A program made the position numbers and the translations under genes. A DNA stretch of 64,000 bases. It comes from Bacteroidaceae bacterium (GTDB lineage: Bacteria > Pseudomonadota > Alphaproteobacteria > RF32 > CAG-239). Of this stretch, positions 1 to 64,000 are shown one piece after another (position 1 is the first letter of the stretch; the number at the start of each line of letters is the position of its first letter). The stretch spans positions 1,398-65,397 of the forward strand of contig CAVIDY010000008.1 in assembly GCA_963641885.1 (NCBI GenBank), in the 5' to 3' direction. The notes below the pieces were generated by a model. That model ran no database searches. It was given only the letters and a program-made list of their open reading frames with translations, and was not told the origin of the DNA.

Positions 1-54
1 GCTGGTCATTAACAATCGCCCGACTGGTGAAGCGCTATAGAAAGAATAGAACAT
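1..54 (-). CDS. partial CDS: first 18 codons (MFYSFYSASPVGRLLMTS) of a leftward gene that leaves the window
   Basis: ATG at 54..52 lies 5 nt downstream of GGAGG (complement of 60..64), and the frame is open to position 1. The Y..SP.G.L pattern recalls methylated-DNA-protein-cysteine methyltransferase N-termini, but 18 residues cannot establish that. Confidence 0.3.
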   Translation of the reverse strand, partial: MFYSFYSASPVGRLLMTS

Positions 55-44354: not shown

Positions 44355-45692
44355 TTAAATTCTGTTTTTCAAGGTTTCATTAGTTTTTAATGTGCGGACA
44401 AGGCGCGGAACCATAAAGATAATGGTTTCCGACTTAGGGTTTTGAATGCCGAATAGTTCGTTCGGTAAGCCAATAATTAAGAAATTTTCGCCAAGCTTGC
44501 TGCGGATTTTAAATTGCGTAACCTGACCATCAGTTTCTTCTAAGGTAATATCTGAAAAGATTTCATTTTTCTTTTCTACCGAAGCTTTAGCCAAAACCGA
44601 CATACCATAGGCGTTGCTTTCTGGTTTGCTGCATTTGCCTATGTCAAAGCGGGAAAGCCACAAGTTAGGCACAATAAATTTGCCTTCAGAAACTGTTTCA
44701 ATTTGAGCTTGGTTTCCTAAGAACTGCTGTAGTTTTTCAATTGAAATGTCATTTGTGGTGGTTAATACGCGACCAATAACTCCGGTTTGCGCTGTTGTGA
44801 TTGAGCCAAAGTCAAAGGCGTTCAGCAAATCTTTCCATTCAATATCTTGCTGAATGTATGGGTATAGGCGGAATACGCTGACGTCATATGCAATAAGAGT
44901 AGGGCTGTTTTCAAATGACTTTATCAGTTCCTGAATTTTGTTGCGGGTTTCAATGTCTGCGTCAAAAGTAATGGAATAATCCGCCCAGTTGGTTACAATG
45001 TTGGTTATTCCTGCGCCGCGGATAACATCAAGCAAGCCTAAAATAATCGGGCGAGACGGAGGGGTGTATAGCGTCATATTGACGCGGCGGCTTAAAGTTA
45101 AAATTTTATCTTTGGCGTTGTAGGTGGTGTAAATGTCCGCCGAATCGGCAATCATTTTAACCACTTCCGAAAATTCGCCTTTTAAATCTTCGGCAGAAAT
45201 GCTGGTATATGGACCATCGGCGGAAGAAACGCGTATGCCTGCTTCTTTGGTTAGTTTTACCAATGCTTGCTCCGCCGGCATCATATCAAAAGTGTAGCCG
45301 GTTACTTCAAAGCGCGGCAGTGGGTCGTTGCGACCGTTTCGCTCAAGTTTGAAGGCGGAGTTTATATATGGCAAAGTCAGTACCATCTGCTGGGTTTTCC
45401 AGTTAACGTTGCAGCGCAGCGGAGTTTCCAAGTCCAAAGCATTAGCTCCTTCCGGAGTGCGGACAATCGCTGGTTCTTCAGGGTCTTTGAACACGATTTC
45501 TTCTTTGGAAAACTTCATAGTGTTTATGTCTGAAGTAGGCTGATTTACGGTTTCTGCCGGAACTTGCGCGCTTATGGCAGCGGTGTTGTCTTCGCTAAAA
45601 TCAATATCATCGCGGGCAATGCAGGCTGAAAGTCCGGATAAAAGCGCGGACAATCCTAAAACTAAACTGAAAGTGTTAATGTGTTTTTTCAT
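44355..45692 (-). CDS. outer-membrane lipoprotein, secretin-like (tentative)
   Basis: Lipobox LSAC. N0/N1-like alpha-beta modules (MPAEQALVKLTKEAGIRV...ILTLS; ITNIVTNWADYSITFDADIETRNKIQELIKSFENSPTLIAYDVSVFRL). C-terminal pattern FKIRSKLGENFLIIGLPNELFGIQ...ETIIFMVPRLV resembles the end of secretin domains. Confidence 0.5.
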   Translation of the reverse strand: MKKHINTFSLVLGLSALLSGLSACIARDDIDFSEDNTAAISAQVPAETVNQPTSDINTMKFSKEEIVFKDPEEPAIVRTPEGANALDLETPLRCNVNWKTQQMVLTLPYINSAFKLERNGRNDPLPRFEVTGYTFDMMPAEQALVKLTKEAGIRVSSADGPYTSISAEDLKGEFSEVVKMIADSADIYTTYNAKDKILTLSRRVNMTLYTPPSRPIILGLLDVIRGAGITNIVTNWADYSITFDADIETRNKIQELIKSFENSPTLIAYDVSVFRLYPYIQQDIEWKDLLNAFDFGSITTAQTGVIGRVLTTTNDISIEKLQQFLGNQAQIETVSEGKFIVPNLWLSRFDIGKCSKPESNAYGMSVLAKASVEKKNEIFSDITLEETDGQVTQFKIRSKLGENFLIIGLPNELFGIQNPKSETIIFMVPRLVRTLKTNETLKNRI

Positions 45693-45704: not shown

Positions 45705-46211
45705 CTATTGCTGCTGATTATTGTCATCGGTGTTGTCTGAATTTTGGCTGATGTTGTTTTCTGCCATAAGTTTGTTCATTAACTCATCTATATTCATACC
45801 AGCACCAGAGGTTGGATCAACCGATTTATCAAAATTACTCATAACTTCATTCATTTTTTGCACTTCGTTAGGGTCGGATCGCAGCATTTCTGGAGATTGG
45901 TTGCTGGTCAGCTCTTCTTGATAAATGGATAGATTTTTACGCAGAGCTTCTACACCGCCAGCGATTTTCTTTTCTATATACGGATAGAGTTCTTTATGCT
46001 CTAAAATATAGTTGCCAGTTTCACAAATTTCTTCCAAAACATCAAGCACATAAGGATAAAATTTATATTCTTCAAGCGCAATGTTGCCGCTGCGGATACA
46101 ACGTGCCGCAATGCGGGAAATGGTGCGGTCGTAATAATCTATCAGAACAATGTAGTTGTCCACATACCAGAGAGATTCCTTGGTAATTGGTGCGAGATTT
46201 TCTTCTGCCAT
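45705..46211 (-). CDS. hypothetical acidic cytoplasmic protein
   Basis: 168 aa, helical N-terminal part, acidic Asn/Gln-rich tail. 12-nt gap to the secretin-like gene. Confidence 0.55.
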   Translation of the reverse strand: MAEENLAPITKESLWYVDNYIVLIDYYDRTISRIAARCIRSGNIALEEYKFYPYVLDVLEEICETGNYILEHKELYPYIEKKIAGGVEALRKNLSIYQEELTSNQSPEMLRSDPNEVQKMNEVMSNFDKSVDPTSGAGMNIDELMNKLMAENNISQNSDNTDDNNQQQ

Positions 46212-48823: not shown

Positions 48824-49642
48824 TTATAGCCCGATAAGCACTACTTTGTGGATTTTTGCAATATTGCTGATAGTAAACAGTATTTTTTCTTCAGGATTGC
48901 AGCGCAAACCATATAATTGTCCGCGTTCGTCCGTATAGAGCCTAACCAGTTTTGCTTCGGCTTTGTTAAAAAAGTAGAGCGCTAAATCGCCTGAACCGAC
49001 AAGCTCGGATTTGTCAATATAAAGTATGGCTTTGTCGGATAAATCCAGTCCGACGCATTTAGCGTTAAGTTTAACCGCATAAACCGAATGCTTGTTTTGC
49101 AAGGCAATGGGGCAGGATATCAATCTTAGGATTGTGGATTTACTGATAAGCAAGTTTCCGTCAGCAGTGGTTGAGCCAAAAAGCGGAATTGTGCTAATTG
49201 TATGCGCAAGATCAGAATTTGTTGTCAGATTTGCACTTTTGAGTGCGTCAACCAAAGAGTTTGCTAATTTTTCGGCAAATTCGTTGCCGATAGCCAGCTC
49301 GCCGACTGTTACGTTTATGTTGTGCTTTTTGTGATGTGTTTCTGCTGATTTTTTTTCTTCTTCAATGTTTTTAGTAATCTGATTAAGCGTTTCGTCCGAA
49401 ATTGTATCGTCATCTTCAAGTTCTTTTATATGTTCCAGCAAAACTTTTCCGCCAGGCATATTGACCAGCAGTTTTTTTATTTTGTCATTCATCTGCAAAA
49501 GAGATTGGTCAAATTCCGCTCTCTTTTCAGCATTGAAAATATGAATTTGATGAAAAATATTTAGATAGCGCTGAGCATCAAGAATCGGATATTCTTCATC
49601 TTTTTCGCTGGCAACATCATTTTCTCTTATTACGTCTGACAC
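48824..49642 (-). CDS. chimeric 272-aa protein: N-domain of the 816-aa protein fused to an S24-like C-domain of the XRE regulator
   Basis: N-terminus: PILDAQRYLNIFHQIHIFN...MPGGKVLLEHIKE. C-terminus: PLFGSTTADGN...GQLYGLRCNPEE...KIHKVVLIGL, versus LPVFGTSNAEGN...GQLYGLRWNPDE...KIHKVVAINL in the regulator. Confidence 0.65.
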   Translation of the reverse strand: MSDVIRENDVASEKDEEYPILDAQRYLNIFHQIHIFNAEKRAEFDQSLLQMNDKIKKLLVNMPGGKVLLEHIKELEDDDTISDETLNQITKNIEEEKKSAETHHKKHNINVTVGELAIGNEFAEKLANSLVDALKSANLTTNSDLAHTISTIPLFGSTTADGNLLISKSTILRLISCPIALQNKHSVYAVKLNAKCVGLDLSDKAILYIDKSELVGSGDLALYFFNKAEAKLVRLYTDERGQLYGLRCNPEEKILFTISNIAKIHKVVLIGL

Positions 49643-49730: not shown

Positions 49731-50720
49731 TTATAAGTTGATAGCCACAACCTTATGAATTTTTGTTAAATCGCTGTTGCTGAAATTTGTCCGTTCATCA
49801 GGATTCCAACGCAAGCCGTAAAGCTGACCGTTTTCATCTTCGCGAACGCTGATTAGCATAGCTTCGGTTTCGCTGATGTAATATAAGGCAATGTCGCCGG
49901 CGCTGACAACTTCTGTTTTATCTATAAACAAAATAGCGCGGCTCGGCAAAAGCGAACCCAAACGGCGGGTGCACAAATTTACGGCATAAGCTTCCGGTTT
50001 GTTTTGCAGCTGCACTGGGCAAACAACTTCTTTTACGGCATTGGCGCGGTCAATGACAATATTGCCTTCGGCGTTGCTGGTGCCAAAAACAGGCAGCATA
50101 GCCGTTTCATCGTCATCGGCAGTTTGCGCGGCAACATTAGAATATCTGGAGTTGTTTAAAAGTTTATAGCGGGTTTCATTGTGTTCGATAATATCTTCTA
50201 AAACGCCTTCATTTTCCAGCTTTTTGATTTCGGCTTTCAATTTGTCGAGAGGCATAGAAAAAGCTTTGGCGATGTTTTGATATTCTTTGTCAGAAACTTC
50301 TCTTTGTCCCATTTCTATACGGTGATAAACCGACAGAGTCATATCAGCGCTTTCGGCAACTTCAATTAAGGTCAAACCTTTGTCAGTGCGAATGTGGCGC
50401 AAACCAGCACCCAAAGTTTTCAAACCAGCATTTTGGTTGATTTTGCAGCGTCTTTCCTGTTCGCGTTTCCAAGCTTGAACAACATCTTGCTGTGAATTTT
50501 GTTCATTAACGTATAAATCTTGCAGCGAGCAGTCAATAAGTTCGGCAACCTGAATCAGCTGTTCTTGATTGAGACGGCGGTAACCTTTTTCAATTTTAGA
50601 AATAGCCGACAAGCTGACTCCCAAATGATCAGCCAATTCTTGCATAGACATACCGCGCAATCTTCTGTGCATTCTGATTTGATTAGGGAAAATAATTTCT
50701 TCCATATCATCTTTCTCCAT
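49731..50720 (-). CDS. transcriptional regulator with two XRE-type HTH domains and a C-terminal S24/LexA-like beta-barrel domain
   Basis: HTH 1: IRMHRRLRGMSMQELADHLGVSLSAISKIEKG. HTH 2: LRHIRTDKGLTLIEVAESADMTLSVYHRIEMG. The C-domain follows the S24 pattern. Confidence 0.75.
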   Translation of the reverse strand: MEKDDMEEIIFPNQIRMHRRLRGMSMQELADHLGVSLSAISKIEKGYRRLNQEQLIQVAELIDCSLQDLYVNEQNSQQDVVQAWKREQERRCKINQNAGLKTLGAGLRHIRTDKGLTLIEVAESADMTLSVYHRIEMGQREVSDKEYQNIAKAFSMPLDKLKAEIKKLENEGVLEDIIEHNETRYKLLNNSRYSNVAAQTADDDETAMLPVFGTSNAEGNIVIDRANAVKEVVCPVQLQNKPEAYAVNLCTRRLGSLLPSRAILFIDKTEVVSAGDIALYYISETEAMLISVREDENGQLYGLRWNPDERTNFSNSDLTKIHKVVAINL

Positions 50721-50902: not shown

Positions 50903-53900
50903 CTATTTAGAGTCTTTATCTTTAACATCTTTACCAGCTAAAATGTCTTTCATTTCTTCGGCTGTAAGTACGGTTTTGTGCAAACCTTTTTTCAGTTTTT
51001 CATCTTGCAGCTGGTTAAGGTGTTCTTGGAACTCTTTGGCGTTGAAACCAGCCATGGCTTTTTGCGCGTCCATACCATAGCCCCAAGCTCCGTTTTCATC
51101 TAAAGGCTGAGAAATTCGGCTGCGGCTGTGGGCTTCATCAGTAAAGCTGTATTTTATAGTTTTAATAAAAGTTCCATCAGTCTGTTTAGCAAAAGATGTG
51201 GTTTTGCTTTGCACGCCGTTGCTCTTCTGCATTGTGATGTTGCCGTTGATGTCAGTGGTTTTATTTTCTATAATCATCTGACCATTATCCATTGAGGCGC
51301 GTATTTCCTGTTTGCTGCCGTTATTGTTGATTTGCTGAATAGTGACGCTGCCGTCCTTATTCATTGTAACTTTGCGGTCTTTGAAACGGCTGTCAAGGTT
51401 TTGACCACGAGCTTTTAAGTGCAGAGCCGCCATCGCAGCCAGGGCGTCGGCTTTGTTTTCGGCGCTGACGCCGTTCATAATTTGATTATAGGCGTGCATA
51501 TTGGTTGAACCGTCTTTGTTAATTAAATATTTTGAGCTTACGTTTTTGAACTGCACATCGCTGCCAATTACTTTACCGTTAGCGTCAACCATGGTGCGTT
51601 TGCTCATAAAGGTGTCATTGGTAGTTTGTACGCTGCCTTTGTGGCTTTCAGTTACCATATCCGTATCTTTGGCGCGTTTATATTTAAGTATATTGCCGTT
51701 TTGGTCGGTAACTAAAACGCTGCTGCCGTCTTTTGAGGTATATTTAACAGTGCCGTCATCCTGAACGGATTTGGTCATTTGCTCATATTTGGCAAACGCA
51801 CCTTTACCGCTGGTTCTGACTGCGAATGTCTGCTCGCCGTTAGCATCAGTCATTGGCTTAAATGCTTTATCGGCAACAGTTTTTTGATGCGTTTCTTTGG
51901 TTTGCGTCCACACGCCGTTAGCGTCCTTGGTAACGGTGCGGGTTTGTGTAAACCCTGGGAGACCCTTGAAACGAGCCTGATAGCCAATTACATTGCCGTC
52001 GGCGTCGCGGAGCTTGCGTCCGCCGAGAGCAACCAAAGCCATGCCTTTTAGCTGATTCTTTTTGCTGCGCACCCAGTTGCCAGCAAGCGAGTTTGTGGCT
52101 TCACCAACAGCTTCCGCACCTTTCTTGGCGATATGACCTGCGCCTTTGGCTATCGGCTTAGCGGCGGAAGCAACCGCACCGCCGACCATGCGACCGATAC
52201 CTTGGCGACCAAAGTCGGCTCCGGTTGCAAATTTGCTTGCCATAGACGGAACTTCATCAATAAAGCATACAAACAAGAATATAAAGGCAAAGATTTTGAA
52301 AAATCCGACCCCCCACCAAGCAAGCCCGTTTGCTTTGAAAGCGGTGATTAGCAATACAGGGTCAAAAGTGGAGAGCGATTCATCGGTTAGCCCAATCCAC
52401 TCTTTGAACATAGAGGTTAAAATAAACATCAGCACGGCTAAGAATATCAGGTTGAACATGGCGTTCATAAAGAAGTTCCAAATAATGCCAAGGTATTTAG
52501 CCGTTGATTTGAAGGCAAAAGCGGCTATAGAGCACGGAATCATCGCCGCGGCAATGCACAGCTGCAAAATGCAGTCTATCAGACACCATGGGAAGGCAAA
52601 GAGCAAAAAGACGCCGACCAGCCATAATCCCATGCCGGACAGAAAGTAGCCAAGGTGCGGGATAACGCCGTCCCACAAGGCCTTGTCATGAAAAGCGTAG
52701 CAGGTGGAATAGTTACCGAGCGCCAAGAGAACACCGACGCTGTCTTCCAAATTTTTGATAGTGCAGATGATTGATTGTCCAAGGTTGCGAGGCAAACCGC
52801 CTTGAGAAGTTTCTTGCATGCCTTTGTCGGTGTCATAGCCGACAATTCCCCCCATATAGTCGGCGGAACTGTCGCAGTTGGAGTTAGGGTTGAGCATGTT
52901 GGCAAAAGTCAAGCCAGTTTGCATTACAGGGGTTAAAGTTAAGTCCATTACCTGATACAGCGCGCCTGATAAAATATATACAACAATGGCGACGCGTGCG
53001 CCCTGCAGAAATATGCCTTTCAGCAAATCTCCAGGGGAGGCGCCTTGGAACGAAGAAATTTGTTTTAAAATATAAATGGCTAGCCAAATTAAAAAGCCGA
53101 TAAGCACAAGGTTTTTGCTGGGAGCCGCTAATTTGCTGATGGCGGTTTGCGCAAGGTTGCTGGCAGCGTTGAAAATTGTTTTGAAAATACCGCAAGTGGT
53201 GCAGGTTTGCTTATCCAAATAATCTGAAAGTATGCAAGATGATTCTCCGCTGCCGTCAACAAATTCTTCACCATTCGGAGCGCCTGGTCCAACAGGCATA
53301 CTGGCATCATCAACTTCGTTGCCGGAAGCCGAATTGCCGTCACTGAAGCTTTGCATACCACCTATGCAAGATTTTGTGCTGGTAGGGCAGCTGCCGCAAA
53401 GGGCTTGCAGGTTACCGCAAGACGCTTGCATGGTTTGACTGTTGCCTACATAAGTTGAACTTGCGGACATTGCGCTATTAACAACTTCAAAGTGCAGGTG
53501 GATTGCATAGTAACGGGAGCAGTTTTTAGCCTGAAGTGGGTTATCGCAGACTGGACCGGAGCGGCTGGAAGCATTAGAGCCGCCGACAACACCGATTGCT
53601 TGGTCTTTTTTTACTTCGCCGCTGCATTTAGTCTGCTTAAATAAATGGCGGTAAATGGTGGAGTAATATTGTCCATTTTTGCCTGCTCCGTCACAGTGTT
53701 TGGTGTGACGGATAACGGTTGTACGTCCGCCGCCAGTGGATATGGAGCAACCCATAACAACGCCGTCAGCTGCGGCATAGGCAAGCACGTTAGTTTTTTT
53801 GCCAGTACCTAAATCGCTTCCGTAGTGGTTTCGAGTGGAGGAACGGGCACCTTCGCGGTTATAGGAGCCGACACTGCTGACGGGAACAGAGTTGAAACAC

Positions 53901-54154
53901 CCGCCGCTGGTTTGGTCGGCAACACATTTTGCTTTAACTTGTTGGGAAGCGCTGCCGACTAAGGAACCGCTTGAAGTTTTGTTTGGTGAGCAGCCGCCCT
54001 GCGATTCACTGTTGGTTGCGGCGCTGCATTTAGGAGTAACGCCGTTGCAGCTGGAAAAAGCCGGAGCCGCAGACAAAGCAAAGCAGCCTGCACTTAAACA
54101 AAGTATCAGCAGGTTTGTTGAAAATTTTTGTAAAAATGTTTGCCGCTTTTTCAT
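50903..54154 (-). CDS. M23 (LytM-type) metallopeptidase head + TrbL/VirB6-like polytopic module + ~400-aa hydrophilic C-terminal extension
   Basis: Signal peptide. HYGSD (HxxxD) and HLHFE (HxH) zinc ligands. CTTCGIF motif. VirB6-like blocks (LIGFLIWLAIYILKQI...; LIDCILQLCIAAAMIPCSIAAFAFKST). Confidence 0.65.
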   Translation of the reverse strand: MKKRQTFLQKFSTNLLILCLSAGCFALSAAPAFSSCNGVTPKCSAATNSESQGGCSPNKTSSGSLVGSASQQVKAKCVADQTSGGCFNSVPVSSVGSYNREGARSSTRNHYGSDLGTGKKTNVLAYAAADGVVMGCSISTGGGRTTVIRHTKHCDGAGKNGQYYSTIYRHLFKQTKCSGEVKKDQAIGVVGGSNASSRSGPVCDNPLQAKNCSRYYAIHLHFEVVNSAMSASSTYVGNSQTMQASCGNLQALCGSCPTSTKSCIGGMQSFSDGNSASGNEVDDASMPVGPGAPNGEEFVDGSGESSCILSDYLDKQTCTTCGIFKTIFNAASNLAQTAISKLAAPSKNLVLIGFLIWLAIYILKQISSFQGASPGDLLKGIFLQGARVAIVVYILSGALYQVMDLTLTPVMQTGLTFANMLNPNSNCDSSADYMGGIVGYDTDKGMQETSQGGLPRNLGQSIICTIKNLEDSVGVLLALGNYSTCYAFHDKALWDGVIPHLGYFLSGMGLWLVGVFLLFAFPWCLIDCILQLCIAAAMIPCSIAAFAFKSTAKYLGIIWNFFMNAMFNLIFLAVLMFILTSMFKEWIGLTDESLSTFDPVLLITAFKANGLAWWGVGFFKIFAFIFLFVCFIDEVPSMASKFATGADFGRQGIGRMVGGAVASAAKPIAKGAGHIAKKGAEAVGEATNSLAGNWVRSKKNQLKGMALVALGGRKLRDADGNVIGYQARFKGLPGFTQTRTVTKDANGVWTQTKETHQKTVADKAFKPMTDANGEQTFAVRTSGKGAFAKYEQMTKSVQDDGTVKYTSKDGSSVLVTDQNGNILKYKRAKDTDMVTESHKGSVQTTNDTFMSKRTMVDANGKVIGSDVQFKNVSSKYLINKDGSTNMHAYNQIMNGVSAENKADALAAMAALHLKARGQNLDSRFKDRKVTMNKDGSVTIQQINNNGSKQEIRASMDNGQMIIENKTTDINGNITMQKSNGVQSKTTSFAKQTDGTFIKTIKYSFTDEAHSRSRISQPLDENGAWGYGMDAQKAMAGFNAKEFQEHLNQLQDEKLKKGLHKTVLTAEEMKDILAGKDVKDKDSK

Positions 54155-54174
54155 TTATTCCTCTTTTTCTGCCA

Positions 54175-56475
54175 TTAGTTAGAACTGTTGTTTCTTTCTT
54201 GCTCGCTTTGGTATTCTGCATCTAGCTGACGCTGATAATCACTGTCATCATAGCCTTTGTTCTTTTGTTTTTGGCGTTGTCTATAGTATTGCTGCGGTTT
54301 CTTTTGCATGCTCTTGCCAAGACTTTGCAGAAAACCTCCGGCTATGCCCATTCCGGCGTTGGCGGTTTCGGTTGCAGTGCCGCGGACGCTGCGGATAACC
54401 ACTTGACCGCTCTTTTTCAAAACCAATTTACCTTTATCTTTTAGCGTTTCTGCATTTTTCCAATCTTGAGAGCCTTGCCGAGCCAGTTGTTTTATGGTTC
54501 TGTAGGCTTGCTGCGGATGGCGGACAGCCTTAAAAGCGTTGCCGATTGTCAAACTGTGACCAGTAGGGCGGGAATAGCTTTTGAATTGCTGCCATTTGGT
54601 TTGCGGTAATTCTGCGGATTGAGCATTTTCAGACTGTGTTTCTCTGGTGTTGGAATTTTTAGAGCCAGTTACTCTGTTGTCTGTTGTTTGCGGAGTACCG
54701 CTGTTATCAGCTGTCGGCTGACCGCCACTTTCCGAATCGTTATTTATAGGGGTATCCGGCGTATCGTTGGTGTTATCAGGCATATCATTGTTACCTGCAG
54801 TGTCGTCGGCATTGTTTGTCGGAAACGGGGTCGCTCCGCCGGAAGGCGAAGTTTGCGGATTGGTTCCGCCTTGCGCAGGAGCAGCGCCGCCGCCAAATTT
54901 TTTGTTAGCCAGTTTATTGCCAAGTTTTTCTATGCCTTTTCCACCTTGAGTTAAAGCGACGTCTCTGGCAAAACGACCGATAGGATTAACAACGCTTTTT
55001 TTAATTTGACCAACGGCTTGAGTGCCGAGATGGTGCATAGCGGTATCGGCAGAGCCAAGCGCACCGTCGCCAAAGAAAGTGGAAAGATAGTTTTGAATGC
55101 TTGACGATAGAATTTTGAAACCAAAAATCAACGCGAACAGAATGATTAGAATGTTAACCGAGCTTAAATCGTAGGATTCACTGAATTTTTCCATGCTGTT
55201 CGCGTATTTGCCGGAGTTAAGAGTTAGCCAAGTTTTAGCGGTGTTTGCCAAACCATCGCCCAAACCATTATCTGTCGCACCCATAATCATCCAAAATTCA
55301 TCATCTTTTACCATGCCAAGGCTGGCGTCAACTAATTTTACCGCATAGGCAGTACCGATGGAAACAAAGGCAAACAGCATAGCGTTATAGATGACGATGG
55401 CAATGTTTTCGGACAATTTACTTTGGGTTGGAGGAAACGGCCAAAGCGAAATAGACAGCGGCAAAAGCAAAGTGGCAAAGCCAAGCTTGAAAGAAATATC
55501 TATAAAATACATACCAATCGACATGCACATAAAGAAGCCGGTGAGGTAAATTAAGAGACCGGAAATAAAGTAGTTAAGCAGCGGTACAACTACCGTGCAG
55601 CTGACTAATGATTTGACTGCGGCGGAAAAACCAGCACCGCCGTCCAAGCAGATAGGAGAAACTTTGGTCGAAAAGCACATCAAAGCGTGTCCGCGGGCAA
55701 ACAGCACGCTAAGTGACTGATAAATCAGCGCCATCATATCTTTGAGGTCTATTAAAATATCTTCGGCAAACAGGCGGTGTTTCATTATTTCATTGTTGAC
55801 AATTTGACCGTTTTTCTCTGCAGCGCTTTGGCAATCGGAAGGTAAAACATACATATTTTCAGGATCGTTGGCTAAATCGTAGTCGCTGGAGCTGCCGCCA
55901 CTAAGAGCGCCTCCGCCGCCAGCAAGGGAAGTGCTGCTATGCCAGGTTTTAAGCGCGCTTAAACCAACACCGTAGACAATTTTATGGTTTCCGACAACTT
56001 TATAGTTTCTGCCTCTTGCCCAAGCCGGAGCTTTACCTTTTTTATCCATCCAGGTTGCATAATAAAAAGTGGCGCCGTTGGTAACATCTTTCAGGCTTCC
56101 GGCAATGGCTTGCCGCGCTATTTCCAAGCATTTTTTCCAGGCCCGAGCATTAGCGCTGTTTAGTTTGCTTGCCCAGCTTTCTATGTTTTGAACAGTCCAG
56201 TTTCTCTTATCATTCCAAAATGAAAATTGGTATCTTGCCAAGCAGACGTCAGATAGTTTTACCGTTTGTCCGCCTTTAGCGTGAGCCTGATAATAGTTGC
56301 GGCGGTTCATAATCACGCTGGCAACGGTTTGCATGCCGGTGACGCCTTCGCCGCCAGCTTCGCCGAACAATGTGGCGGTTAAATAAGCTTCTTCATATGA
56401 CAAAGTAAAAGCAGTGCTTGTGTAAAGCAGCAAACTTGCGAGGGTTATAAGTATGTATTTCTTAAACTTTTTCAT
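54175..56475 (-). CDS. SleB/CwlJ-type cell wall hydrolase head + C-terminal half of a TrbL/VirB6-like module + low-complexity tail
   Basis: Signal peptide. LFGEAGGEG...VASVIMNR...YQFSFW...GATFYYATW...VGNHKIVYG (Hydrolase_2 pattern). TM block YFIDISFKLGFATLLLPLSISLWPFPPT. Confidence 0.65.
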   Translation of the reverse strand: MKKFKKYILITLASLLLYTSTAFTLSYEEAYLTATLFGEAGGEGVTGMQTVASVIMNRRNYYQAHAKGGQTVKLSDVCLARYQFSFWNDKRNWTVQNIESWASKLNSANARAWKKCLEIARQAIAGSLKDVTNGATFYYATWMDKKGKAPAWARGRNYKVVGNHKIVYGVGLSALKTWHSSTSLAGGGGALSGGSSSDYDLANDPENMYVLPSDCQSAAEKNGQIVNNEIMKHRLFAEDILIDLKDMMALIYQSLSVLFARGHALMCFSTKVSPICLDGGAGFSAAVKSLVSCTVVVPLLNYFISGLLIYLTGFFMCMSIGMYFIDISFKLGFATLLLPLSISLWPFPPTQSKLSENIAIVIYNAMLFAFVSIGTAYAVKLVDASLGMVKDDEFWMIMGATDNGLGDGLANTAKTWLTLNSGKYANSMEKFSESYDLSSVNILIILFALIFGFKILSSSIQNYLSTFFGDGALGSADTAMHHLGTQAVGQIKKSVVNPIGRFARDVALTQGGKGIEKLGNKLANKKFGGGAAPAQGGTNPQTSPSGGATPFPTNNADDTAGNNDMPDNTNDTPDTPINNDSESGGQPTADNSGTPQTTDNRVTGSKNSNTRETQSENAQSAELPQTKWQQFKSYSRPTGHSLTIGNAFKAVRHPQQAYRTIKQLARQGSQDWKNAETLKDKGKLVLKKSGQVVIRSVRGTATETANAGMGIAGGFLQSLGKSMQKKPQQYYRQRQKQKNKGYDDSDYQRQLDAEYQSEQERNNSSN

Positions 56476-56488
56476 GATAACCGCCTTT

Positions 56489-57064
56489 TTAACCGCTTGC
56501 CGCTCCGTTTTGCGCCAACATTTCCGTTAAAATTGATTTGCCAATTCCGGTACCGGTTGAAACAATCGGGTTCAAAATGTAGTTGGTGATAAAATCTGTG
56601 CCCATTTCCAGCGCGTAATAGGCAAACGCACACTTAAAGCCCATCATAAAAATTTCTTGTAGCATTTTTCCGGGGGTTATTCCACCCATGGAACTAAGCT
56701 GTTGCAAAAGAAAAATTCCCAGCCAAATTAAAAAGCCCCATTTAAGAATAACTTTGCCTAAACTCTGCGTGGTGGGAATTGAACTTTCCGCCGCCTGCAA
56801 AAAAGCATCGGTCATCAAGGTAACAATACGGCAATACCAGCAGTTTTGCGCATCTTTGGCATTATACATCGAATCCATGGCTTTTTTGGTGCAAGTTCCC
56901 GTAACTTCCGCATTTTCTGCGGTTTTGTCTGCGTTAGTGGCAGCGGTTTTGCTAGCATTATCATCGGCAGCGGCATAGCTTAAATTTGCGCTGGCAAAGC
57001 TGAAGCACAGTGTGAAAATAAGTAAATATAAAAAACTTTTAGAGAGATTAACTATCTTTTTCAT
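56489..57064 (-). CDS. 191-aa protein equal to the N-terminal half of a TrbL/VirB6-like module
   Basis: Signal peptide, CWYC motif, LKWGFLIWLGIFLLQQLSSMGGITPGKMLQEIFMMGFKCAFAYYAL and YILNPIVSTGTGIG. It stops in the loop where the paralogs continue. Confidence 0.55.
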   Translation of the reverse strand: MKKIVNLSKSFLYLLIFTLCFSFASANLSYAAADDNASKTAATNADKTAENAEVTGTCTKKAMDSMYNAKDAQNCWYCRIVTLMTDAFLQAAESSIPTTQSLGKVILKWGFLIWLGIFLLQQLSSMGGITPGKMLQEIFMMGFKCAFAYYALEMGTDFITNYILNPIVSTGTGIGKSILTEMLAQNGAASG

Positions 57065-58427
57065 TGCGGTTTATCCCCCTTAACTTATCCATTTTTTGTT
57101 GAACAGCTTTGATTTTTGCCGTAGCTTTCTGTACCTTGGCACGAGCTTTACGCAAAGATTCCACATGGTCTATGATAGAAGTGGCAATTTTGCCGGCGCC
57201 ACCGGAGATAATATGAAATCCCCATTTTGCAGCCATAGCAACCAGCTGCTGAATTTTGCGCTGCATGCCCGCTTTACCTCCTCCTCCGGTGATTTTGTTG
57301 GAAAGCTCCACAGACATACCGGTTGCCTTGACAATTAAAAAGCCCATAAAGATAAGCGCCATGGCAGTGGTGCCGAAATTTTCATATTTGCTTTGTTCAG
57401 CCAGCCCGATACCGTCCTGCGTTAATAATTTCTGCATGGCGAGAATGGTCATGGAAACAATGATGCCCAAACAAAACATAATAGCCGAAGAATTGAGGAT
57501 TATCTTAAAACCGGTAACGCTCCATTTGCGGATTTGCTCAAAAGGATACGCCATTATCAGGAATGGTAAAATAATCATTATCATATTCAAACGGAAAATG
57601 CTGTCGGCTAAATAGAGCACAAAACAGAGCTTGGCAATGGTGAACCAAACAATTAAGAAACAGCCGCAGATAAAACTGGTCAGGCTGACAATTTTCATTA
57701 AGCGTATGGCAATGTCATAGCCGATGGCAAGTCTGGAGCTGACGGCGCACGCCATGCAGCTCAGCATATTAAGCGGTTCTTCCGGAAAAGATTTTGCCGA
57801 AAAATCAGTCATGCTTTTAGGGTTGAACTTGCAGCCGCTTTGTCCCCAGTTGGCGTCGCCGTAATACTCGCACATAATTCCTTCTGTGTCATCGCCGAAT
57901 GTTGATTTCCAAGCAATGGTCTTTACCTGCGCGTCAGGATCTTGAGCCAGCCTTTGCATAATTTCGGACGTAAACTCTAAAATGGTGATGTATATAGGAA
58001 ATATAAAGTTATTTATCACATAATAAATTTGCTCGGTAGAAGAGGCTAAAATGCCGCAAAACGCGCATAAAAAGGCTTTGCGGACAATCTTGGTCCAAAA
58101 TTCGCCCAAGGATTCGGGAGTAGGCGTGCTGATGTGGCGCAGAATTTGATATGCCATCCAGATGGTAAAACCAAGCAAAACAATGTTTAGCAGATTTTCT
58201 TTGGTCAGATTGCTGTAAACGTTTAGGGTTTGAGTGCCGATATTTTTGTAAAAAAGTTTCAAGAAACCAGTTTGCCAGCAAGTGTTCTGCATTTCTGCGG
58301 CTTTGCGGGGGTCTTCCTGCCCAACACTAGTTCCACCTTCTTCGGTGCTGCAGGCGGTCAGCAAAAACAGTAGGGAAAAGGCAATAAACAATACCTTTAA
58401 GATATTATGCAGCTTTGGTGCTTTCAT
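57048..58427 (-). CDS. TrbL/VirB6-like polytopic membrane lipoprotein
   Basis: Lipobox LLTAC. Both conserved blocks are present (LLGFTIWMAYQILRHI...; YLADSIFRLNMIMIILPFLIMAYPFEQIRKW). GGGGKAG tail. Confidence 0.65.
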   Translation of the reverse strand: MKAPKLHNILKVLFIAFSLLFLLTACSTEEGGTSVGQEDPRKAAEMQNTCWQTGFLKLFYKNIGTQTLNVYSNLTKENLLNIVLLGFTIWMAYQILRHISTPTPESLGEFWTKIVRKAFLCAFCGILASSTEQIYYVINNFIFPIYITILEFTSEIMQRLAQDPDAQVKTIAWKSTFGDDTEGIMCEYYGDANWGQSGCKFNPKSMTDFSAKSFPEEPLNMLSCMACAVSSRLAIGYDIAIRLMKIVSLTSFICGCFLIVWFTIAKLCFVLYLADSIFRLNMIMIILPFLIMAYPFEQIRKWSVTGFKIILNSSAIMFCLGIIVSMTILAMQKLLTQDGIGLAEQSKYENFGTTAMALIFMGFLIVKATGMSVELSNKITGGGGKAGMQRKIQQLVAMAAKWGFHIISGGAGKIATSIIDHVESLRKARAKVQKATAKIKAVQQKMDKLRGINRNEKDS

Positions 58428-58536
58428 ATTTATAGTCCTTTTCCGTTATACCTTACTTTACCAATATATCATAATTTTTATGCAAAATGTGTTACAATAT
58501 GATTAAGATTTGCATTTTTACCCGCTGTTCTCTGAA

Positions 58537-60498
58537 TTACGGATTTTGTTGATTGTTATTTTCTTCAGTTTGCTCTGTGTTTTCTATTTTTGAAGTTTCA
58601 GCGTCTTTGTCGGATGGCGAAGTTGGCGTTGGCTTAGGAGTTGTATCTTTACCGTCAGACTTGGTCGGTTTTGGCGGCATACCGCGTTGTGCTCCCGGCT
58701 GGAATTTCTTTAAGCCGACTTTTGCTCCGACGGCAGCCGCGCCCTTCAGTGCTGCTCCGGAAATTGCATTGCCGGCTTTGTTGGCTAAATTTGTAATACC
58801 TGTTTTATCCGCAGCATATCCGGCAGCCGAAGAAACAACTCTGCCACCGATTTTGGCAGCACCTTTGCCGATAGAGGTTGCAGCAGACGCGGTAGCTCCA
58901 CCGATTTTAGCGGCAATGCTTGAGCCGGAGCCGGAAGCGAATTTATTGGCAGTACCATTGATAATGCCTATCATTTTGAAGGCAAAAATGCAGCAGGCGA
59001 TTAAAATCAAAGTTTCCATACCATCAAGACTGGCGATTTCATTAACCTTGTCCAAATCGTTTTCATTCAAAGCATTTAGCAATGTAGATAAATCACCTTT
59101 TTTGCCGCCAGCTGAATAGCCGATTATTTCCATGCCCACAACCAGCATAACACCAGCAAGCGCAAAGTTGAAAAATGTGTTCATCAGCATGCTCATGCCT
59201 TTGTTGGCGTATCTAGTCGTCAACTTAAACGGCCAGCAGGCGATCAAAACCGGCACAAAAGCGCATAAAATACCTAGCTGAACCGTGCAGTCTATTAGAT
59301 AAAAAACGATAACCATCCAAATTCCCAAGCCAAAAATATAAACGACTAGTCCATTTGCCCATATGCCAAAATCAGGAATAAGGTCTTTTTTCCAGCCATA
59401 GCAAATAAGCGCGCGTCCCACAGAAGGCATGGTAGAGGCAGATTGGCTGAAACAGTCGGCGGTGTTATAAATGCTGCCCAGCAACGAAGCGTCCATTTCG
59501 CCGCCCGGTGCCATTGAAAACATTGAAACTTTGTCTATACAGCTTTTTGCCCCAGGGTTGCCGATTGAAAGCAGCGCCAGTCCCATATCTAAGCCGCCCT
59601 TGACTATTGGTGAAATTACATAATTGTAAATATCGGCGGAGTTGCTTAGCAAATAATAAGCGATAGCGACTCTAAGTCCCAATCCGATAATCGCTTTTAA
59701 ATAAGCGCCAGTGTTGGCTCCGGACGGAGTGAAAATGGTTCTGAGCGTCTGTAAGGCAAGATATACCAAGAAAAAGGTCAGAACAATCGGCTGCAGGGCA
59801 GAGGCAAGGGCTTTCCAAGCAATGGAGGCAAGGGAGGCGTCTGCACTCAAAACTGTTTGAAATATAGGGCAAAGCGGACAGCCGGCGTAATCGCTTAAAT
59901 AGCTGGAAAACGGTTTGCAGCCTTTTACTTGGTCTTTGAGTTCGTGGGTTTGGTTGGAATAGCTGACACATTCAGCGTTTTGCCCGTTGTCGTCGCAAAC
60001 GCAGGATAAATTTGCGTCAGGGTCTTGACGGACAACACCTAAAACATTTTCTGCCTTAGACCGTAGGTTGATAAATTTTTCCAGCATTTGGGCTGCTTGG
60101 TTTTTTAGCTTTACACATTCAGGTTTTTTCGGGTTTTCAGCGTTCCAAGCAACACCAGTATATTCAAAATTATCTTTGCGGATATAGTAAGCGCTGTCAA
60201 TGCTGCCGGAAGAAGTTTTTTCCAGCATAATAATGCTTTGTCTAGCTAAATCAGTGAAAATTGTGGGTGTCTGTTTATTTAATCCGCGGTTGCAGTTTTC
60301 TTCATATTGTTTGGCAACGGTGTTATAAGCGTCAAGCTGGCTTTTTACGCTGTTCAACGAAGCAATAGCTGTTTGATTTATGTTTTTTTTGAGATTTTCA
60401 AGTTCTTGAGGCTTGCACTCTGCAGCGTCGGCATAAAGTTTCGGCATAGCGGAGAACAGGCAGAAAAAAATAAATATAAACAGTTTAAGTTTAGACAT
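58537..60498 (-). CDS. TrbL/VirB6-like polytopic membrane protein with Cys-rich coiled-coil periplasmic head
   Basis: Start set at MSKLKLFIF (signal peptide, GGGGAGAA RBS), not at the tracked 60669. CPLCPIF motif, both conserved blocks, Gly/Ala/Lys tail. Confidence 0.65.
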   Translation of the reverse strand: MSKLKLFIFIFFCLFSAMPKLYADAAECKPQELENLKKNINQTAIASLNSVKSQLDAYNTVAKQYEENCNRGLNKQTPTIFTDLARQSIIMLEKTSSGSIDSAYYIRKDNFEYTGVAWNAENPKKPECVKLKNQAAQMLEKFINLRSKAENVLGVVRQDPDANLSCVCDDNGQNAECVSYSNQTHELKDQVKGCKPFSSYLSDYAGCPLCPIFQTVLSADASLASIAWKALASALQPIVLTFFLVYLALQTLRTIFTPSGANTGAYLKAIIGLGLRVAIAYYLLSNSADIYNYVISPIVKGGLDMGLALLSIGNPGAKSCIDKVSMFSMAPGGEMDASLLGSIYNTADCFSQSASTMPSVGRALICYGWKKDLIPDFGIWANGLVVYIFGLGIWMVIVFYLIDCTVQLGILCAFVPVLIACWPFKLTTRYANKGMSMLMNTFFNFALAGVMLVVGMEIIGYSAGGKKGDLSTLLNALNENDLDKVNEIASLDGMETLILIACCIFAFKMIGIINGTANKFASGSGSSIAAKIGGATASAATSIGKGAAKIGGRVVSSAAGYAADKTGITNLANKAGNAISGAALKGAAAVGAKVGLKKFQPGAQRGMPPKPTKSDGKDTTPKPTPTSPSDKDAETSKIENTEQTEENNNQQNP

Positions 60499-60799
60499 TT
60501 TTATTCTCCCCGTTGGTTTTACCGCGGCGTCTGCGGGATTTTTTCTGCGTTTTTGTCGGCTCGGCAACATTTTGTTTGAGGTGCAGTTTTTGTTTAATAA
60601 AATTAGAAATCCTGACAAGGAAATTGGTATATTTGTTTTGCGGAACGCCGACCAGCAGCAAACCAGCAAGCAATACTAAAATAAAGCCGATTTTAGCCGA
60701 ATAGGCAAAGAAACTTGTGCCGATAATATCCAAGGCGTGCGAACTCACTAGTGAAAACACGACAATAAACATTAGCAATGTAAGAAAAATCGACTTCAT
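60491..60799 (-). CDS. 102-aa two-TM protein with strongly basic C-tail
   Basis: Overlaps the next gene start by 8 nt (translational coupling). Hydrophobic segments at residues 4-20 and 37-52. Tail KKSRRRRGK. Confidence 0.5.
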   Translation of the reverse strand: MKSIFLTLLMFIVVFSLVSSHALDIIGTSFFAYSAKIGFILVLLAGLLLVGVPQNKYTNFLVRISNFIKQKLHLKQNVAEPTKTQKKSRRRRGKTNGENKNV

Positions 60800-60834
60800 A
60801 TTCTTTTACCTTTTCAGTTTTCGTTAACCTGATT

Positions 60835-63063
60835 CTATGATTTTGAACCGCTGCTTGGCTTTGCTCCTCCGCCGGATTCCTCTTTGTTTTCACCTTCGGT
60901 GTCACCTTTTTCAGCGTCTTCAGCATTGCGACCGCCAGCAATTTTGGCTTTGCTGCCAATACCAAATTTGCCTGAGATATTTTTAGCACCAGTAGATATT
61001 TTATTGCCGACAGCTTGAACTGCGCCAGTAACACCAGCGGCTTCAGCCATGGCTCCGCTGGCAGAAGCAATTGCTTTAGCTCCTTTAGCAGCAGCTGGTT
61101 TGGCAACGGCTGTCGCCACGCTGGCGGCAGTACCGCCAAGTTTCGAGCCCATGTCTCCGGTTGGAACGCCGCCGCTGGCAAAGCGGTCTGTGACTTTTGA
61201 AAGCTGTGAAACTAATTTCATGGAAATCATACAGCAAACCAGCAAAATCAGCATTTGCAAACCGTTTATGCTCATCGCTTTTTCCAATTCATCGGTGTTG
61301 TTGCTGTTCAGCCATTCTTCCAGCTGACTTTTATCCAAACCGGAAGTAAGCGCCGCTTCTATCAATTCAATCACCGAAGCTAAAAGCACTCCCATTATAA
61401 TAAAGCGGAAACATACATTCAAAATCATATTCCAGCCAGTTTTAGTGTAGCCGGAAGTTATTTTAAACGGCCAGCAGGCAATTAAGAACGGCAGCAGGCA
61501 GGCAATTATGCCTAAATGAAGAGCTATATCTAACAGATAGAAACCAACAGCCAGCATTATCATCAAACCAAAGGCAAAAATGAGAACGCCCTCAATCAGC
61601 ATTTGCCAATGCGGCAGCACATACCAGGTTTTATTTACCCAAGAATTACAATATAAGGAACGACCGATTGCCGGAAAAGTAGAGGTTTTGGCGTTGTAGC
61701 CTTCTACTGCGCCCATAACTTTTTTCAAAAAATCGGCAGTGAGTAAATTGTTCCCTTCGTCAAAAGAATCGTATTTGCTGGCAAAGCCTTCAATGACGCT
61801 TTGGTCAGCACTGCTAGGAATTAACGAAAGTCCGAATTCAAAGCCGCTTTCTATTAACGGCGTCAAGCCGAGTTCATAAACAGTATTCGGCAGTGCCAAT
61901 AACCCTATGGCTAAGGCTACTTTGAAGCCTTGCAACAAAAGAGTGTTTAAAAATTTACCGATAGTTTGCTTGGCAGGAGAAGCAATCAGTATTAAAACTT
62001 GATAACCGATAAATATTGAAAAACCCAACAGTAACAGATTGATTAAAGAATCGCTTAATGCTTCAAAAGCTCCGCCGGATAATTTTTGGTCAGCTTTCAA
62101 TATGGTTTCAAAAATACCGCAAATCGGACAAATCGTAAAATCTGCCTCATATTCATTCAGCTGTTTGCATTCCGCATCATTGAGGTCATCTTCTTGAAAA
62201 GTATCATCTTTAACTTCACAAGACAAAAGCTCGCCAGTTGAGGCACAGGTGCAATGGCTTTCAACTTGTTTTGACAAAGTGGTTAAATATTGGTGGGCTT
62301 TATCGCGGCTGGCGGAAAAAGCACGGCGATAATTCATTACGTTATTGAAAGCTTTTTGGCAGTCGGTTAATATTTCTATTTTCGCCTCTAATGCCAGGGA
62401 ATGAGCCTCGGCGACAGCTATTGCTTCGGCGGTTTGGGCGTTTTGCATTTCCGTTTTTCGGTCTTGGCGGTTGCTTATATATTCATGCCGTGCACTGTTA
62501 ACATTTTCGATGTGGTATTTTATGTCTATGTGCGTGTCTTTAAGCTCTTTATCTAAAACGTCAAAATTTTCTTGCAATGCTGGAACGTATTTTGCTCCCG
62601 TAACAGCTCCGGCAGCGTCATTGGCGTTAAATTTTAGGTCGCTGTTTGCTATGTTTTTGAAAACAATTTTAGTTTTGTCGATGGCGCTTGTTAAAACGCC
62701 TTTAATCCATTGACTCGCTTTGCCACTTAAACTTTGCTTATCGCCAAGCTTAAAGTCCAGTTCCGACGGTGTAAAGCAAACCAGCGTGTTGTCGTTTTTT
62801 TTCATGGCATTAAGGGATTTTTCATACTCATCGTAGTTTTTTTTCATTTCTATCAGCTGCAAATTAGCTTGTTCTGCTATTTTTTTGTAGTTGTCATCAG
62901 TTAATTCGCATTCTTTAGTGCCTGAAGATAAGCTGGTGGTAGAATTTGCAGCAGTTTCGGCGGCATTTGCAGCCTGTATTGCCGCAAGCAAAGCAAAACA
63001 GCATAAAAACACTGTTTTTATAAAAAAGTTAGGGTTTAATTTTTTCCTGCTTTGCCAAATCAA
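60835..63063 (-). CDS. TrbL/VirB6-like polytopic membrane protein with Cys-rich coiled-coil periplasmic head
   Basis: TTG start with AAGGA upstream gives a signal peptide with an RKK n-region. CPIC at 62119..62130. Both conserved blocks. Gly/Ala/Lys tail. Confidence 0.65.
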   Translation of the reverse strand: MIWQSRKKLNPNFFIKTVFLCCFALLAAIQAANAAETAANSTTSLSSGTKECELTDDNYKKIAEQANLQLIEMKKNYDEYEKSLNAMKKNDNTLVCFTPSELDFKLGDKQSLSGKASQWIKGVLTSAIDKTKIVFKNIANSDLKFNANDAAGAVTGAKYVPALQENFDVLDKELKDTHIDIKYHIENVNSARHEYISNRQDRKTEMQNAQTAEAIAVAEAHSLALEAKIEILTDCQKAFNNVMNYRRAFSASRDKAHQYLTTLSKQVESHCTCASTGELLSCEVKDDTFQEDDLNDAECKQLNEYEADFTICPICGIFETILKADQKLSGGAFEALSDSLINLLLLGFSIFIGYQVLILIASPAKQTIGKFLNTLLLQGFKVALAIGLLALPNTVYELGLTPLIESGFEFGLSLIPSSADQSVIEGFASKYDSFDEGNNLLTADFLKKVMGAVEGYNAKTSTFPAIGRSLYCNSWVNKTWYVLPHWQMLIEGVLIFAFGLMIMLAVGFYLLDIALHLGIIACLLPFLIACWPFKITSGYTKTGWNMILNVCFRFIIMGVLLASVIELIEAALTSGLDKSQLEEWLNSNNTDELEKAMSINGLQMLILLVCCMISMKLVSQLSKVTDRFASGGVPTGDMGSKLGGTAASVATAVAKPAAAKGAKAIASASGAMAEAAGVTGAVQAVGNKISTGAKNISGKFGIGSKAKIAGGRNAEDAEKGDTEGENKEESGGGAKPSSGSKS

Positions 63064-63171: not shown

Positions 63172-64000
63172 TTATTTTTTTTCGGCAGCTGAAGTCTGCG
63201 GAAGTTTACCGTTGCAGATAAAGTATCGGCAAATTTTGCCTAGTTCTAGGTCGTTTAGCGGAAATAGCCTTGGTACGTTTATGGTTTGTACATCATCGGC
63301 GAAAGAAGTTTCACTTGGCGGAGTTTGAAACGGAAAACTTTCATAGCGGCTGAGGATTTTTTTTATCATATGCGTATAAACGGGCGGGTAAAAAAGTAGG
63401 CTATGTTTAATTTCTTTGGGCAGTTTAGGCAGCTCCATCGCTTTTTTAGGAGTAATTGAAATTAACATTGGACCTAGAATTTGGCGGAAAAAGTTAGAAC
63501 GGCACAGTAAATCTGCTAAATCACTGCCTGAATTGAGTGGGTTTATATCCAACACTCCGGCAATATGATACTCACGGTAGTCGTCTACCTGCGAAAGGAA
63601 CCGACGCAGCAATAAACAGCCAGCGCCGTTAGTGATAAAGTACGTCTTTCCTTGAGTATCTAAGTTTTTTATAAATGAGCAGAGTATATCTGCCTGATAG
63701 TTTAAATTTTTGTGCAGAAAAGGGTAATTAAAAGCAATTATGTTGGTTTTTAAATCTTTTAGCGATTCGGCGATTCGTTTCATGGAAAATTTTGTACGTC
63801 CGAAGTTGTGCAATAAGATAACCGAATCGGAATATGGCGATTCCAATTCGTAAGCGTCTATATATTTTAAAAGTGTATTTTTACATTCTTCAAAACTTCC
63901 AGATTCGCGTCGAATGGAATAATTATCTAAAAGTCGGTATTTTTTTGTGCGGACATGGCGCTGAATTACCCAATTTTGGTAATTAAAAACGTCTTCCCAA
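63172..64000 (-). CDS. alpha/beta-hydrolase-fold protein, partial (frame stays open to the window edge)
   Basis: VILLHNFGRTKFSM resembles the beta3/oxyanion region. The nucleophile-elbow position reads ITNGAGC (no Ser). The reading frame has no stop between 63846 and 64000, so the tracked TTG start is probably internal. Confidence 0.45.
   Translation of the reverse strand, partial: WEDVFNYQNWVIQRHVRTKKYRLLDNYSIRRESGSFEECKNTLLKYIDAYELESPYSDSVILLHNFGRTKFSMKRIAESLKDLKTNIIAFNYPFLHKNLNYQADILCSFIKNLDTQGKTYFITNGAGCLLLRRFLSQVDDYREYHIAGVLDINPLNSGSDLADLLCRSNFFRQILGPMLISITPKKAMELPKLPKEIKHSLLFYPPVYTHMIKKILSRYESFPFQTPPSETSFADDVQTINVPRLFPLNDLELGKICRYFICNGKLPQTSAAEKK

Follow-up and report, generated by a model that had tools for sequence, protein, structure and literature searches.

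Background

The type IV secretion system (T4SS) of the Rickettsiales, known as rvh, has been described as a bona fide rickettsial signature, its hallmarks being multicopy RvhB6, duplicated VirB4, VirB8 and VirB9, and the absence of VirB5 (PMC11077975). Five tandem VirB6 paralogues (RvhB6a-e), 674-1154 amino acids (aa) long, are found in Rickettsia (PMC2653234), and four tandem virB6 genes (VirB6-1..4) in Wolbachia and the Anaplasmataceae (PMC2653234, PMC12407924). T4SS genes of the Rickettsiales sit in scattered islands, and in one R. bellii strain virB6d is split (PMC2653234). Tandem, multicopy VirB6 genes with large N- and C-terminal extensions, lying apart from most other T4SS genes, make up the rvh pattern (PMC2653234, PMC11077975, PMC12407924); the purpose of VirB6 proliferation has been called a mystery (PMC11077975, PMC12407924). 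In this work, we describe a tandem array of VirB6-like membrane genes found in a stretch of 64,000 nucleotides (nt), hereafter the window, of contig CAVIDY010000008.1 (positions 1,398 to 65,397; assembly GCA_963641885.1, filed as Bacteroidaceae bacterium). A conserved row of VirB6-type genes, with no other secretion genes nearby, is a layout otherwise described only in the Rickettsiales.

The array had been singled out in an original prediction, made by reading the DNA without database searches, as either a dispersed piece of an rvh-like T4SS or a VirB6-derived system with a different role, and this alternative remains the right framing. Three features described below had been missed: a split unit, the fusion of two members to hydrolase domains, and a 102-aa gene. 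Literature searches turned up no account of the array, nor of any T4SS components in its host clade (RF32, CAG-239), which is probably the GTDB order RF32.

The array genes are paralogues with a VirB6-like membrane core

The array is composed of six minus-strand open reading frames (ORFs) at 50903-63063, here named A to F (742, 653, 459, 191, 766 and 1083 aa), whose coordinates and sizes were confirmed as first reported, and which are tightly packed, with spacings of -17 to +109 nt. The six genes are paralogues: in an all-versus-all BLASTP comparison A and B are 30% identical (E 5e-73), and further pairs are connected at lower significance (A/F 4e-31, B/F 2e-31, D/F 6e-17, B/E 9e-14, A/C 3e-12). 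A hidden Markov model (HMM) of the membrane core, 336 positions long, matches all six proteins with E values from 1e-157 to 9e-14, the scores being 344.6 bits for A, 160.7 for F and 44.5 for C.

Four independent tests, based on sequence and on a predicted fold, indicate that this membrane core is homologous to VirB6/TrbL. Gene B matches Pfam PF04610 (TrbL/VirB6) with 30.7 bits (E 3.5e-7), above the cut-off of 25.9, while gene A, at 19.8 bits, stays below it; among distant orthologues the TrbL scores are 18.0 and 26.8 bits for the A/B-type, 21-23 for the C-type and 24.4 for the F-type (locus L069). A family profile (A2), built from 24 core sequences of all paralogue types, was aligned by hhalign with a profile (A6) of 8 canonical VirB6 proteins, including R388 TrwI, the IncN TraD-type, representatives from Pseudomonas, Xanthomonas and Paraburkholderia plasmids, and pTiC58 VirB6. 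The two profiles match with 94.2% probability (E 1.1e-7) over 270 co-linear columns, stretching between the first transmembrane helix and the last, and the block 'LP.LIA.WPFK.T' of the array is aligned with 'GP(L/I)(I/F)I...T' of VirB6. An AlphaFold2 model, computed for B only, has a mean predicted local distance difference test (pLDDT) score of 66, rising to 70-89 in the transmembrane region. When the model was compared with the PDB by Foldseek, ranks 1-6 and 8 were occupied by TrwI/VirB6 chains of the R388 stalk complex, with probability 1.00 and TM-scores of 0.47-0.62 on the target (for 8rt9_F, E 4.6e-4 and TM 0.60 on the target); the matches after the VirB6 chains have probabilities not exceeding 0.28. 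Finally, an orthologue 92% identical to gene B has been annotated by the NCBI pipeline as 'type IV secretion system protein'. Membership of the TrbL/VirB6 superfamily, originally suggested by a likeness to Agrobacterium VirB6, is borne out both by sequence and by fold.

Several searches gave no similar result. Single-sequence hhalign comparisons with A. tumefaciens VirB6 and TrwI were insignificant (probability 0.3% and 2.4%, respectively), a sequence-profile search of the PDB with the B family returned low-complexity noise only, and no NCBIfam model matches the six proteins. In a phmmer control, however, A. tumefaciens VirB6 itself does not retrieve TrwI, so that negative sequence searches carry no weight here. 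A multi-paralogue profile search and a full HMMER scan retrieved only members of the array's own family, with no Rickettsiales bridge or outgroup. In plasmids, tblastn with the B core produced matches at E 0.3 only, all of them within genes annotated as 'type IV secretion system protein'. The plasmids concerned (H1-H20, such as NZ_CP069210.1) are small, non-mobilizable enterobacterial replicons of 4.2-5.7 kb carrying a lone gene of this annotation, and are thus another orphan VirB6-type case; their match to the B core is weak and limited to the central block.

A split unit and four ancestral genes

The core HMM is covered only in part by two of the proteins: D matches positions 8-118, and E positions 129-331. 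D aligns by BLASTP with the N-terminal part of the F and B cores, and in five distant relatives (L054, L060, L069, L076 and L078) a single protein spans positions 8-333. Judged from this coverage, D and E are the two halves of one VirB6-like unit. The original count of six related membrane genes is thus right as to their kinship and has to be lowered to five as to the number of units. The split point falls in the periplasmic loop that follows helix 2, and since the same split is found in locus L044, it must be old.

In the distant part of the clade the gene set is made of four genes, of A/B-type, C-type, D~E-type and F-type. The window lineage arrived at six genes from four ancestral ones, A/B having been duplicated and D~E cut in two; the window's clade also gained a 102-aa ORF (s102) between the duplicated A and B copies. 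A CxxC motif just ahead of the first helix is common to A, B, D and F, and one of its cysteines is invariant across all paralogue types.

The ratio of nonsynonymous to synonymous substitution rates (dN/dS), computed against two relatives about 90% identical, ranges from 0.06 to 0.19 for the six array genes, indicating that they are real and constrained; both halves of the split unit are under purifying selection. Values for single genes are 0.14-0.16 for A, 0.06 for C and 0.11-0.19 for D, with 0.2-0.4 for s102. Gene C is the most conserved of the six, with 75% identity where A has 53%.

Predicted peptidoglycan hydrolase domains

A periplasmic head had been proposed to precede the first hydrophobic block of the array proteins. 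In E and F, the N-terminal periplasmic heads are instead predicted peptidoglycan hydrolase domains, of the SleB type and of the M23 type, respectively. Gene E matches Pfam PF07486 (Hydrolase_2) with 52.2 bits, well over the cut-off of 27, a GEAGGE motif is readable in its sequence, and the domain was recorded for E counterparts in relatives too. Gene F reaches 26 bits with Peptidase_M23, just under the cut-off of 28.7, while F-type orthologues score 73.6 and 62.4 bits, and the M23 motifs HxxxD (HYGSD) and HxH (HLH) can be read in F itself. The F-type orthologue of L069 additionally matches a VgrG3-like C domain. In the tails of some B-type orthologues MORN_2 matches were recorded.

Distribution and conservation in relatives

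A scan of 185,579 species genomes identified 79 loci, all of them in uncultured metagenome-assembled genomes (MAGs) from gut or rumen. The hosts are human (Hadza, Nepal, UHGG), cattle, sheep, goat, deer, yak, horse, chicken and mouse; the chicken MAG is 'Ca. Scatocola faecigallinarum', and 'Ca. Scatocola' is filed under Rhodospirillales. Most of the 79 loci are labelled Alphaproteobacteria, Rhodospirillaceae or Azospirillum, some more broadly (Pseudomonadota, proteobacterium), and the 3 with non-proteobacterial labels look like mislabelled bins. A scan of metagenomes, made with a narrow alignment, added 80 contigs, from gut and rumen only and with the same context. The closest public copies (L008, L010 and L012) are labelled '[Ruminococcus] gnavus', 'Bacteroidaceae bacterium' and 'uncultured Eubacteriales bacterium', and their sequence is alphaproteobacterial; these bins are probably mislabelled or contaminated.

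Synteny was evaluated in 86 genome or assembly loci and 80 gut-metagenome loci, covering up to ~10 kb around the array in each relative, and 64 kb in this genome. Wherever a locus is long enough, the VirB6-like genes keep their order and are followed by a regulator of the XRE type; A and s102 are confined to loci with a duplicated A/B, and a part of the clade has D and E joined in one protein. This order is conserved over divergences at which dS is saturated. The array is a vertically inherited chromosomal operon. The window itself carries genes of an alphaproteobacterial chromosome (cckA, mipZ, mraZ/mraW, penicillin-binding protein genes, pal, tilS, kdsB, lnt and an N-type ATPase), a gene set of free-living type, and its base composition features no clear break.

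Search for other secretion genes

A tblastn search of the window, together with 167 related loci (2.24 Mb), was made with 22 proteins, namely A. fabrum VirB1-11 and VirD4, and R388 TrwB and TrwD-M; nothing was found below E 0.5, and neither the 64-kb window nor the 2.24 Mb of related loci yielded homologues of VirB2-5, VirB7-11 or VirD4. Forty-one window ORFs, among them all listed ones of 150 aa or more at 36.8-64 kb (a range that includes 43741-64000), were scanned with Pfam or NCBIfam, and no T4SS family but TrbL was revealed; a dozen larger ORFs at 20.9-36.7 kb were covered by tblastn only. The absence of other T4SS parts from the surroundings, as first reported, is thus upheld, and the usual context of a T4SS cluster, VirB4 together with core-complex genes, occurs neither in the window nor in the related loci.

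It had been pointed out that a virB3-virB4 pair just past position 64000 would make this an ordinary rvh-type locus. In relatives, what lies in front of the array is a hydrolase-like gene, followed by a divergent rRNA operon in close relatives or by housekeeping genes in those from the rumen. No integrase, relaxase or coupling protein was detected in the family scans or in the Vir/Trw tblastn. The chromosomal context is the same throughout the clade, which is not what is expected of an integrative or conjugative element.

Gene list and neighbourhood

The features of the array and of its surroundings are listed in Table 1. Gene B orthologues are likewise 653 aa long, and the lipobox of gene C can be read directly in its protein sequence. 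The stop codon of s102 overlaps the start of gene B; counterparts of 95-108 aa have been called as genes in relatives, and tblastn detected s102 in many loci carrying both A and B, while Pfam and NCBIfam scans gave it no family match. A terminator scan performed no better than chance.

Table 1. Array genes, their domains and other features of the window (nt positions in the window).
Feature	Position	Strand	Description
Hydrolase-like gene	63172..64000	(-)	Alpha/beta-hydrolase-like, DUF7379-like; upstream neighbour of the array, cut by the window end
Gene A	60835..63063	(-)	742 aa; signal peptide, Cys-rich helical periplasmic N-domain, CPxC motif, VirB6-like transmembrane core, Gly/Ala-rich C-tail
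Gene A transmembrane core	61147-62181	(-)	VirB6-like
s102	60491..60799	(-)	102-aa ORF between A and B; two hydrophobic segments, basic tail
Gene B	58537..60498	(-)	653 aa; VirB6-like transmembrane core at 58900-59931
Gene C	57048..58427	(-)	459 aa, shortest paralogue apart from the split pieces; lipoprotein-type signal (LLTAC); core at 57168-58316
Gene D	56489..57064	(-)	191 aa; CxxC motif and TM1-TM2 (first two transmembrane helices), predicted N-terminal third of the split VirB6-like unit
Gene E	54175..56475	(-)	766 aa; own signal peptide, predicted Hydrolase_2 domain, C-terminal 2/3 of the core, long hydrophilic tail
Gene E Hydrolase_2 domain	55984-56352	(-)	Predicted SleB-type cell-wall hydrolase, Pfam PF07486
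Gene F	50903..54154	(-)	1083 aa; signal peptide, predicted M23/LytM domain, full core, repeat-rich hydrophilic C-domain of ~400 aa
Gene F M23/LytM peptidase domain	53483-53830	(-)	Predicted, Pfam Peptidase_M23
Gene F VirB6-like core	52193-53248	(-)	Full-length core
XRE regulator	49731..50720	(-)	Downstream neighbour of the array; two XRE-type helix-turn-helix (HTH) domains and a C-terminal domain
272-aa gene	48824-49642	(-)	Chimera of its neighbours
816-aa gene	46275-48725	(-)	Two in-frame tandem repeat arrays
816-aa gene, repeat 1	46952-47333		39 nt x 9.8, PKPEPVKEQ-type
816-aa gene, repeat 2	46296-46541		51 nt x 4.8, DGDWEYVDENGNPVSG-type; weak MORN/WW-like matches
g168	45705-46211		168 aa, acidic
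g445	44355-45692	(-)	445 aa, predicted lipoprotein
g200	43741-44343		200 aa, single-pass membrane protein
Alternate (N-type) F1F0 ATPase operon	36800-43508	(+)	Alpha, beta and gamma match 'alternate F1F0' NCBIfam models
Ser/Thr protein kinase gene	22907-25113	(-)	Adjoins a PP2C phosphatase gene

The upstream neighbour, already recognized in the first reading as alpha/beta-hydrolase-like, runs off the end of the window, its frame being open to 63999. An orthologue is 288 aa long, and a weak PF24096 match was recorded in relatives. The gene adjoins the array in most related loci, is undetected in some, and lies 4.5 kb off in L079. In close relatives the divergent rRNA operon is found ~0.5 kb upstream of it, with the order 16S-tRNA-tRNA-23S-5S (L001 352-5204; L007 1-2058), an arrangement that accounts for the many public contigs breaking off a little upstream of the array. 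Its place is taken by housekeeping genes in the rumen relatives. In some relatives a small conserved lipoprotein gene (144-146 aa) lies directly upstream of the hydrolase-like gene (L058 5511-5945, L067 1198-1638).

On the downstream side the regulator foreseen from the sequence was found, two stretches of which match Pfam HTH_3 (86 bits). It adjoins the array in all cases and far exceeds it in conservation, with 64-99% identity across all loci and a dN/dS of 0.02; it may also regulate the array. Its best named matches, which are weak, are phage and Wolbachia-Wmk-type double-HTH proteins. The 272-aa gene that comes next resembles the N-terminus of the 816-aa protein in its first 145 aa (52% identity) and the C-terminal domain of the XRE regulator in its last 123 aa (46% identity).

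Further on, g168, g445 and g200 form a three-gene block with spacers of 12 and 11 nt. The g445 protein is 72-89% identical over more than 120 protein clusters, and has no family match in Pfam (23 members searched), NCBIfam, PADLOC or PDB. A secretin-like C-terminus, suspected by eye, is unsupported, Pfam, the PDB profile search and PADLOC being negative and the AlphaFold2 model having a pLDDT of 40. The N-type ATPase operon is syntenic with the array region in relative L089.

Interpretation

In the reading that we consider the most likely, at about even chances, the array provides a dispersed rvh-like T4SS with its inner-membrane platform, wall hydrolases included. The paralogues would co-assemble in the inner membrane into a hetero-oligomeric VirB6 platform. 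According to PDB entry titles, R388 TrwI/VirB6 forms the stalk with TrwJ/VirB5, TrwI being at its base; the VirB6 base of this stalk is a pentamer, and five is also the number of units in the window. The hydrolases tethered to it, as predicted from their domains, would open the sacculus at the site of assembly, which is the job of VirB1 in canonical systems. By analogy with the Rickettsiales, the platform would serve a T4SS that has the genes for its ATPases and outer-membrane core at other places in the genome.

Some observations weigh against such a platform. The family is very distant from canonical VirB6, its profile having only ~2000 representatives among 1.84 billion proteins, and single-sequence comparisons with canonical VirB6 are insignificant. 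The partners VirB2-5, VirB7-11 and VirD4 are missing from all the sequence searched around the array, and where the Rickettsiales array follows rvhB3-rvhB4, the array described here is preceded by an rRNA operon or by housekeeping genes.

The same observations lead to the main rival, which we consider possible, though rather unlikely: a VirB6-derived, VirB4-independent envelope system, that is, a self-sufficient complex for membrane and wall remodelling or for export, core to the clade, which may work with the flanking hydrolase-like gene, the XRE regulator and g168-g445-g200. Not one of ~165 loci shows a T4SS partner, and in each related locus retrieved the array is syntenic, beside an rRNA operon and housekeeping genes, as a core cluster would be. 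Its neighbours are extremely conserved, to judge from the XRE regulator and g445, and the divergence from canonical VirB6 is deep. However, no VirB6/TrbL-family protein is known to work without VirB4. In the only lineage with this array pattern, moreover, T4SS genes are normally dispersed (PMC2653234). The conserved flanking genes match no recognizable secretion-related family, and their linkage may be plain chromosomal synteny, because the adjacent ATPase operon is syntenic too. The stronger proposal, that an order-level clade of gut and rumen Alphaproteobacteria uses a VirB6-only machine, made of four to five paralogues plus hydrolases and lacking VirB4, VirB11, VirD4 and the VirB7-10 core, is likewise possible, though rather unlikely.

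That the array might be what is left of a decaying integrated conjugative element or ancient T4SS, with nonfunctional genes, is suggested by the isolation of a T4SS-type family from its partners and by the presence of a unit split in two. It is nevertheless very improbable: the six genes are all intact, purifying selection acts on each of them, both split halves included, the split is kept in the distant relative L044, gene order is conserved where dS is saturated, and neither an integrase or relaxase, within the scope of the scans given above, nor a clear break in base composition accompanies the array. Just as improbable is an unrelated membrane or transporter family resembling VirB6 through hydrophobic composition, for which the insignificant single-sequence comparisons and the empty PDB sequence search might speak, were they not deprived of weight by the failed VirB6-TrwI control, and which is opposed by the 270 co-linear columns of the profile match at 94% probability, by the Pfam cut-off passed by B, and by a fold search in which VirB6 chains alone reach probability 1.00, the next matches not exceeding 0.28.

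Tandem proliferation of VirB6 is held in the literature to be part of a signature unique to the Rickettsiales (PMC11077975, PMC12407924). The same architecture is found here as a conserved core locus, under selection, in an abundant uncultured gut lineage of human, ruminants, horse, chicken and mouse. The stably split unit marks the periplasmic loop as a place where the protein tolerates fission, and the predicted hydrolase fusions would tie VirB6 to wall opening. Should the rest of a T4SS be encoded elsewhere in these genomes, rvh-like systems would extend beyond the Rickettsiales, providing a non-intracellular model. Should there be none, VirB6 would have a T4SS-independent life, and a VirB6-only machine, if real, would represent a novel type of cell-envelope or secretion system with its origin in a T4SS component.

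Comparison with known systems

The closest known system is the RvhB6/VirB6 paralogue array of the Rickettsiales. In both cases four to five tandem, divergent genes with a VirB6 domain lie on an alphaproteobacterial chromosome, and the four ancestral genes deduced here equal in number the four tandem virB6 genes of Wolbachia. The proteins are far above the size of canonical VirB6 (674-1154 aa in Rickettsia, 459-1083 aa here), with N- and C-terminal extensions flanking the core in both; both arrays are detached from most T4SS genes, with canonical VirB1 and VirB5 not alongside, and both include split copies, virB6d in one R. bellii strain and D+E here. There are also differences. The hosts of the array, by their labels and gene set, are gut and rumen MAGs of the 'Rhodospirillales incertae sedis' type, not Rickettsiales; two members carry predicted peptidoglycan hydrolase domains, and one unit is stably split. 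Membership of rvh is therefore not established: the multicopy, extended VirB6 is there, whereas adjacency to rvhB3-rvhB4 and a Rickettsiales host are not.

With canonical VirB6/TrbL proteins, such as A. tumefaciens VirB6, R388 TrwI and IncN TraD, the array shares a polytopic transmembrane core that, by profile alignment and modelling, is homologous, co-linear and of the same fold. Canonical VirB6, however, is a single-copy protein of ~300-390 aa whose gene sits in a T4SS operon, with virB5/eex on one side and virB7-8 on the other. In the array the protein is present in several copies, 459-1083 aa long; these feature a Cys-rich N-domain in the periplasm, a CxxC motif and predicted hydrolase fusions, and operon partners are absent.

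A third comparison concerns the peptidoglycan hydrolases dedicated to a particular machine, such as VirB1, FlgJ and TagX of the type VI secretion system. The predicted domains of E and F would fit the same role, the periplasmic cutting of the wall for an envelope-spanning machine. They differ from VirB1 in kind, being of the Hydrolase_2 and M23 families rather than soluble lytic transglycosylase (SLT)/GH23 domains, and in arrangement: VirB1 is a separate protein, whereas here the predicted hydrolase is covalently fused to the VirB6-like membrane protein.

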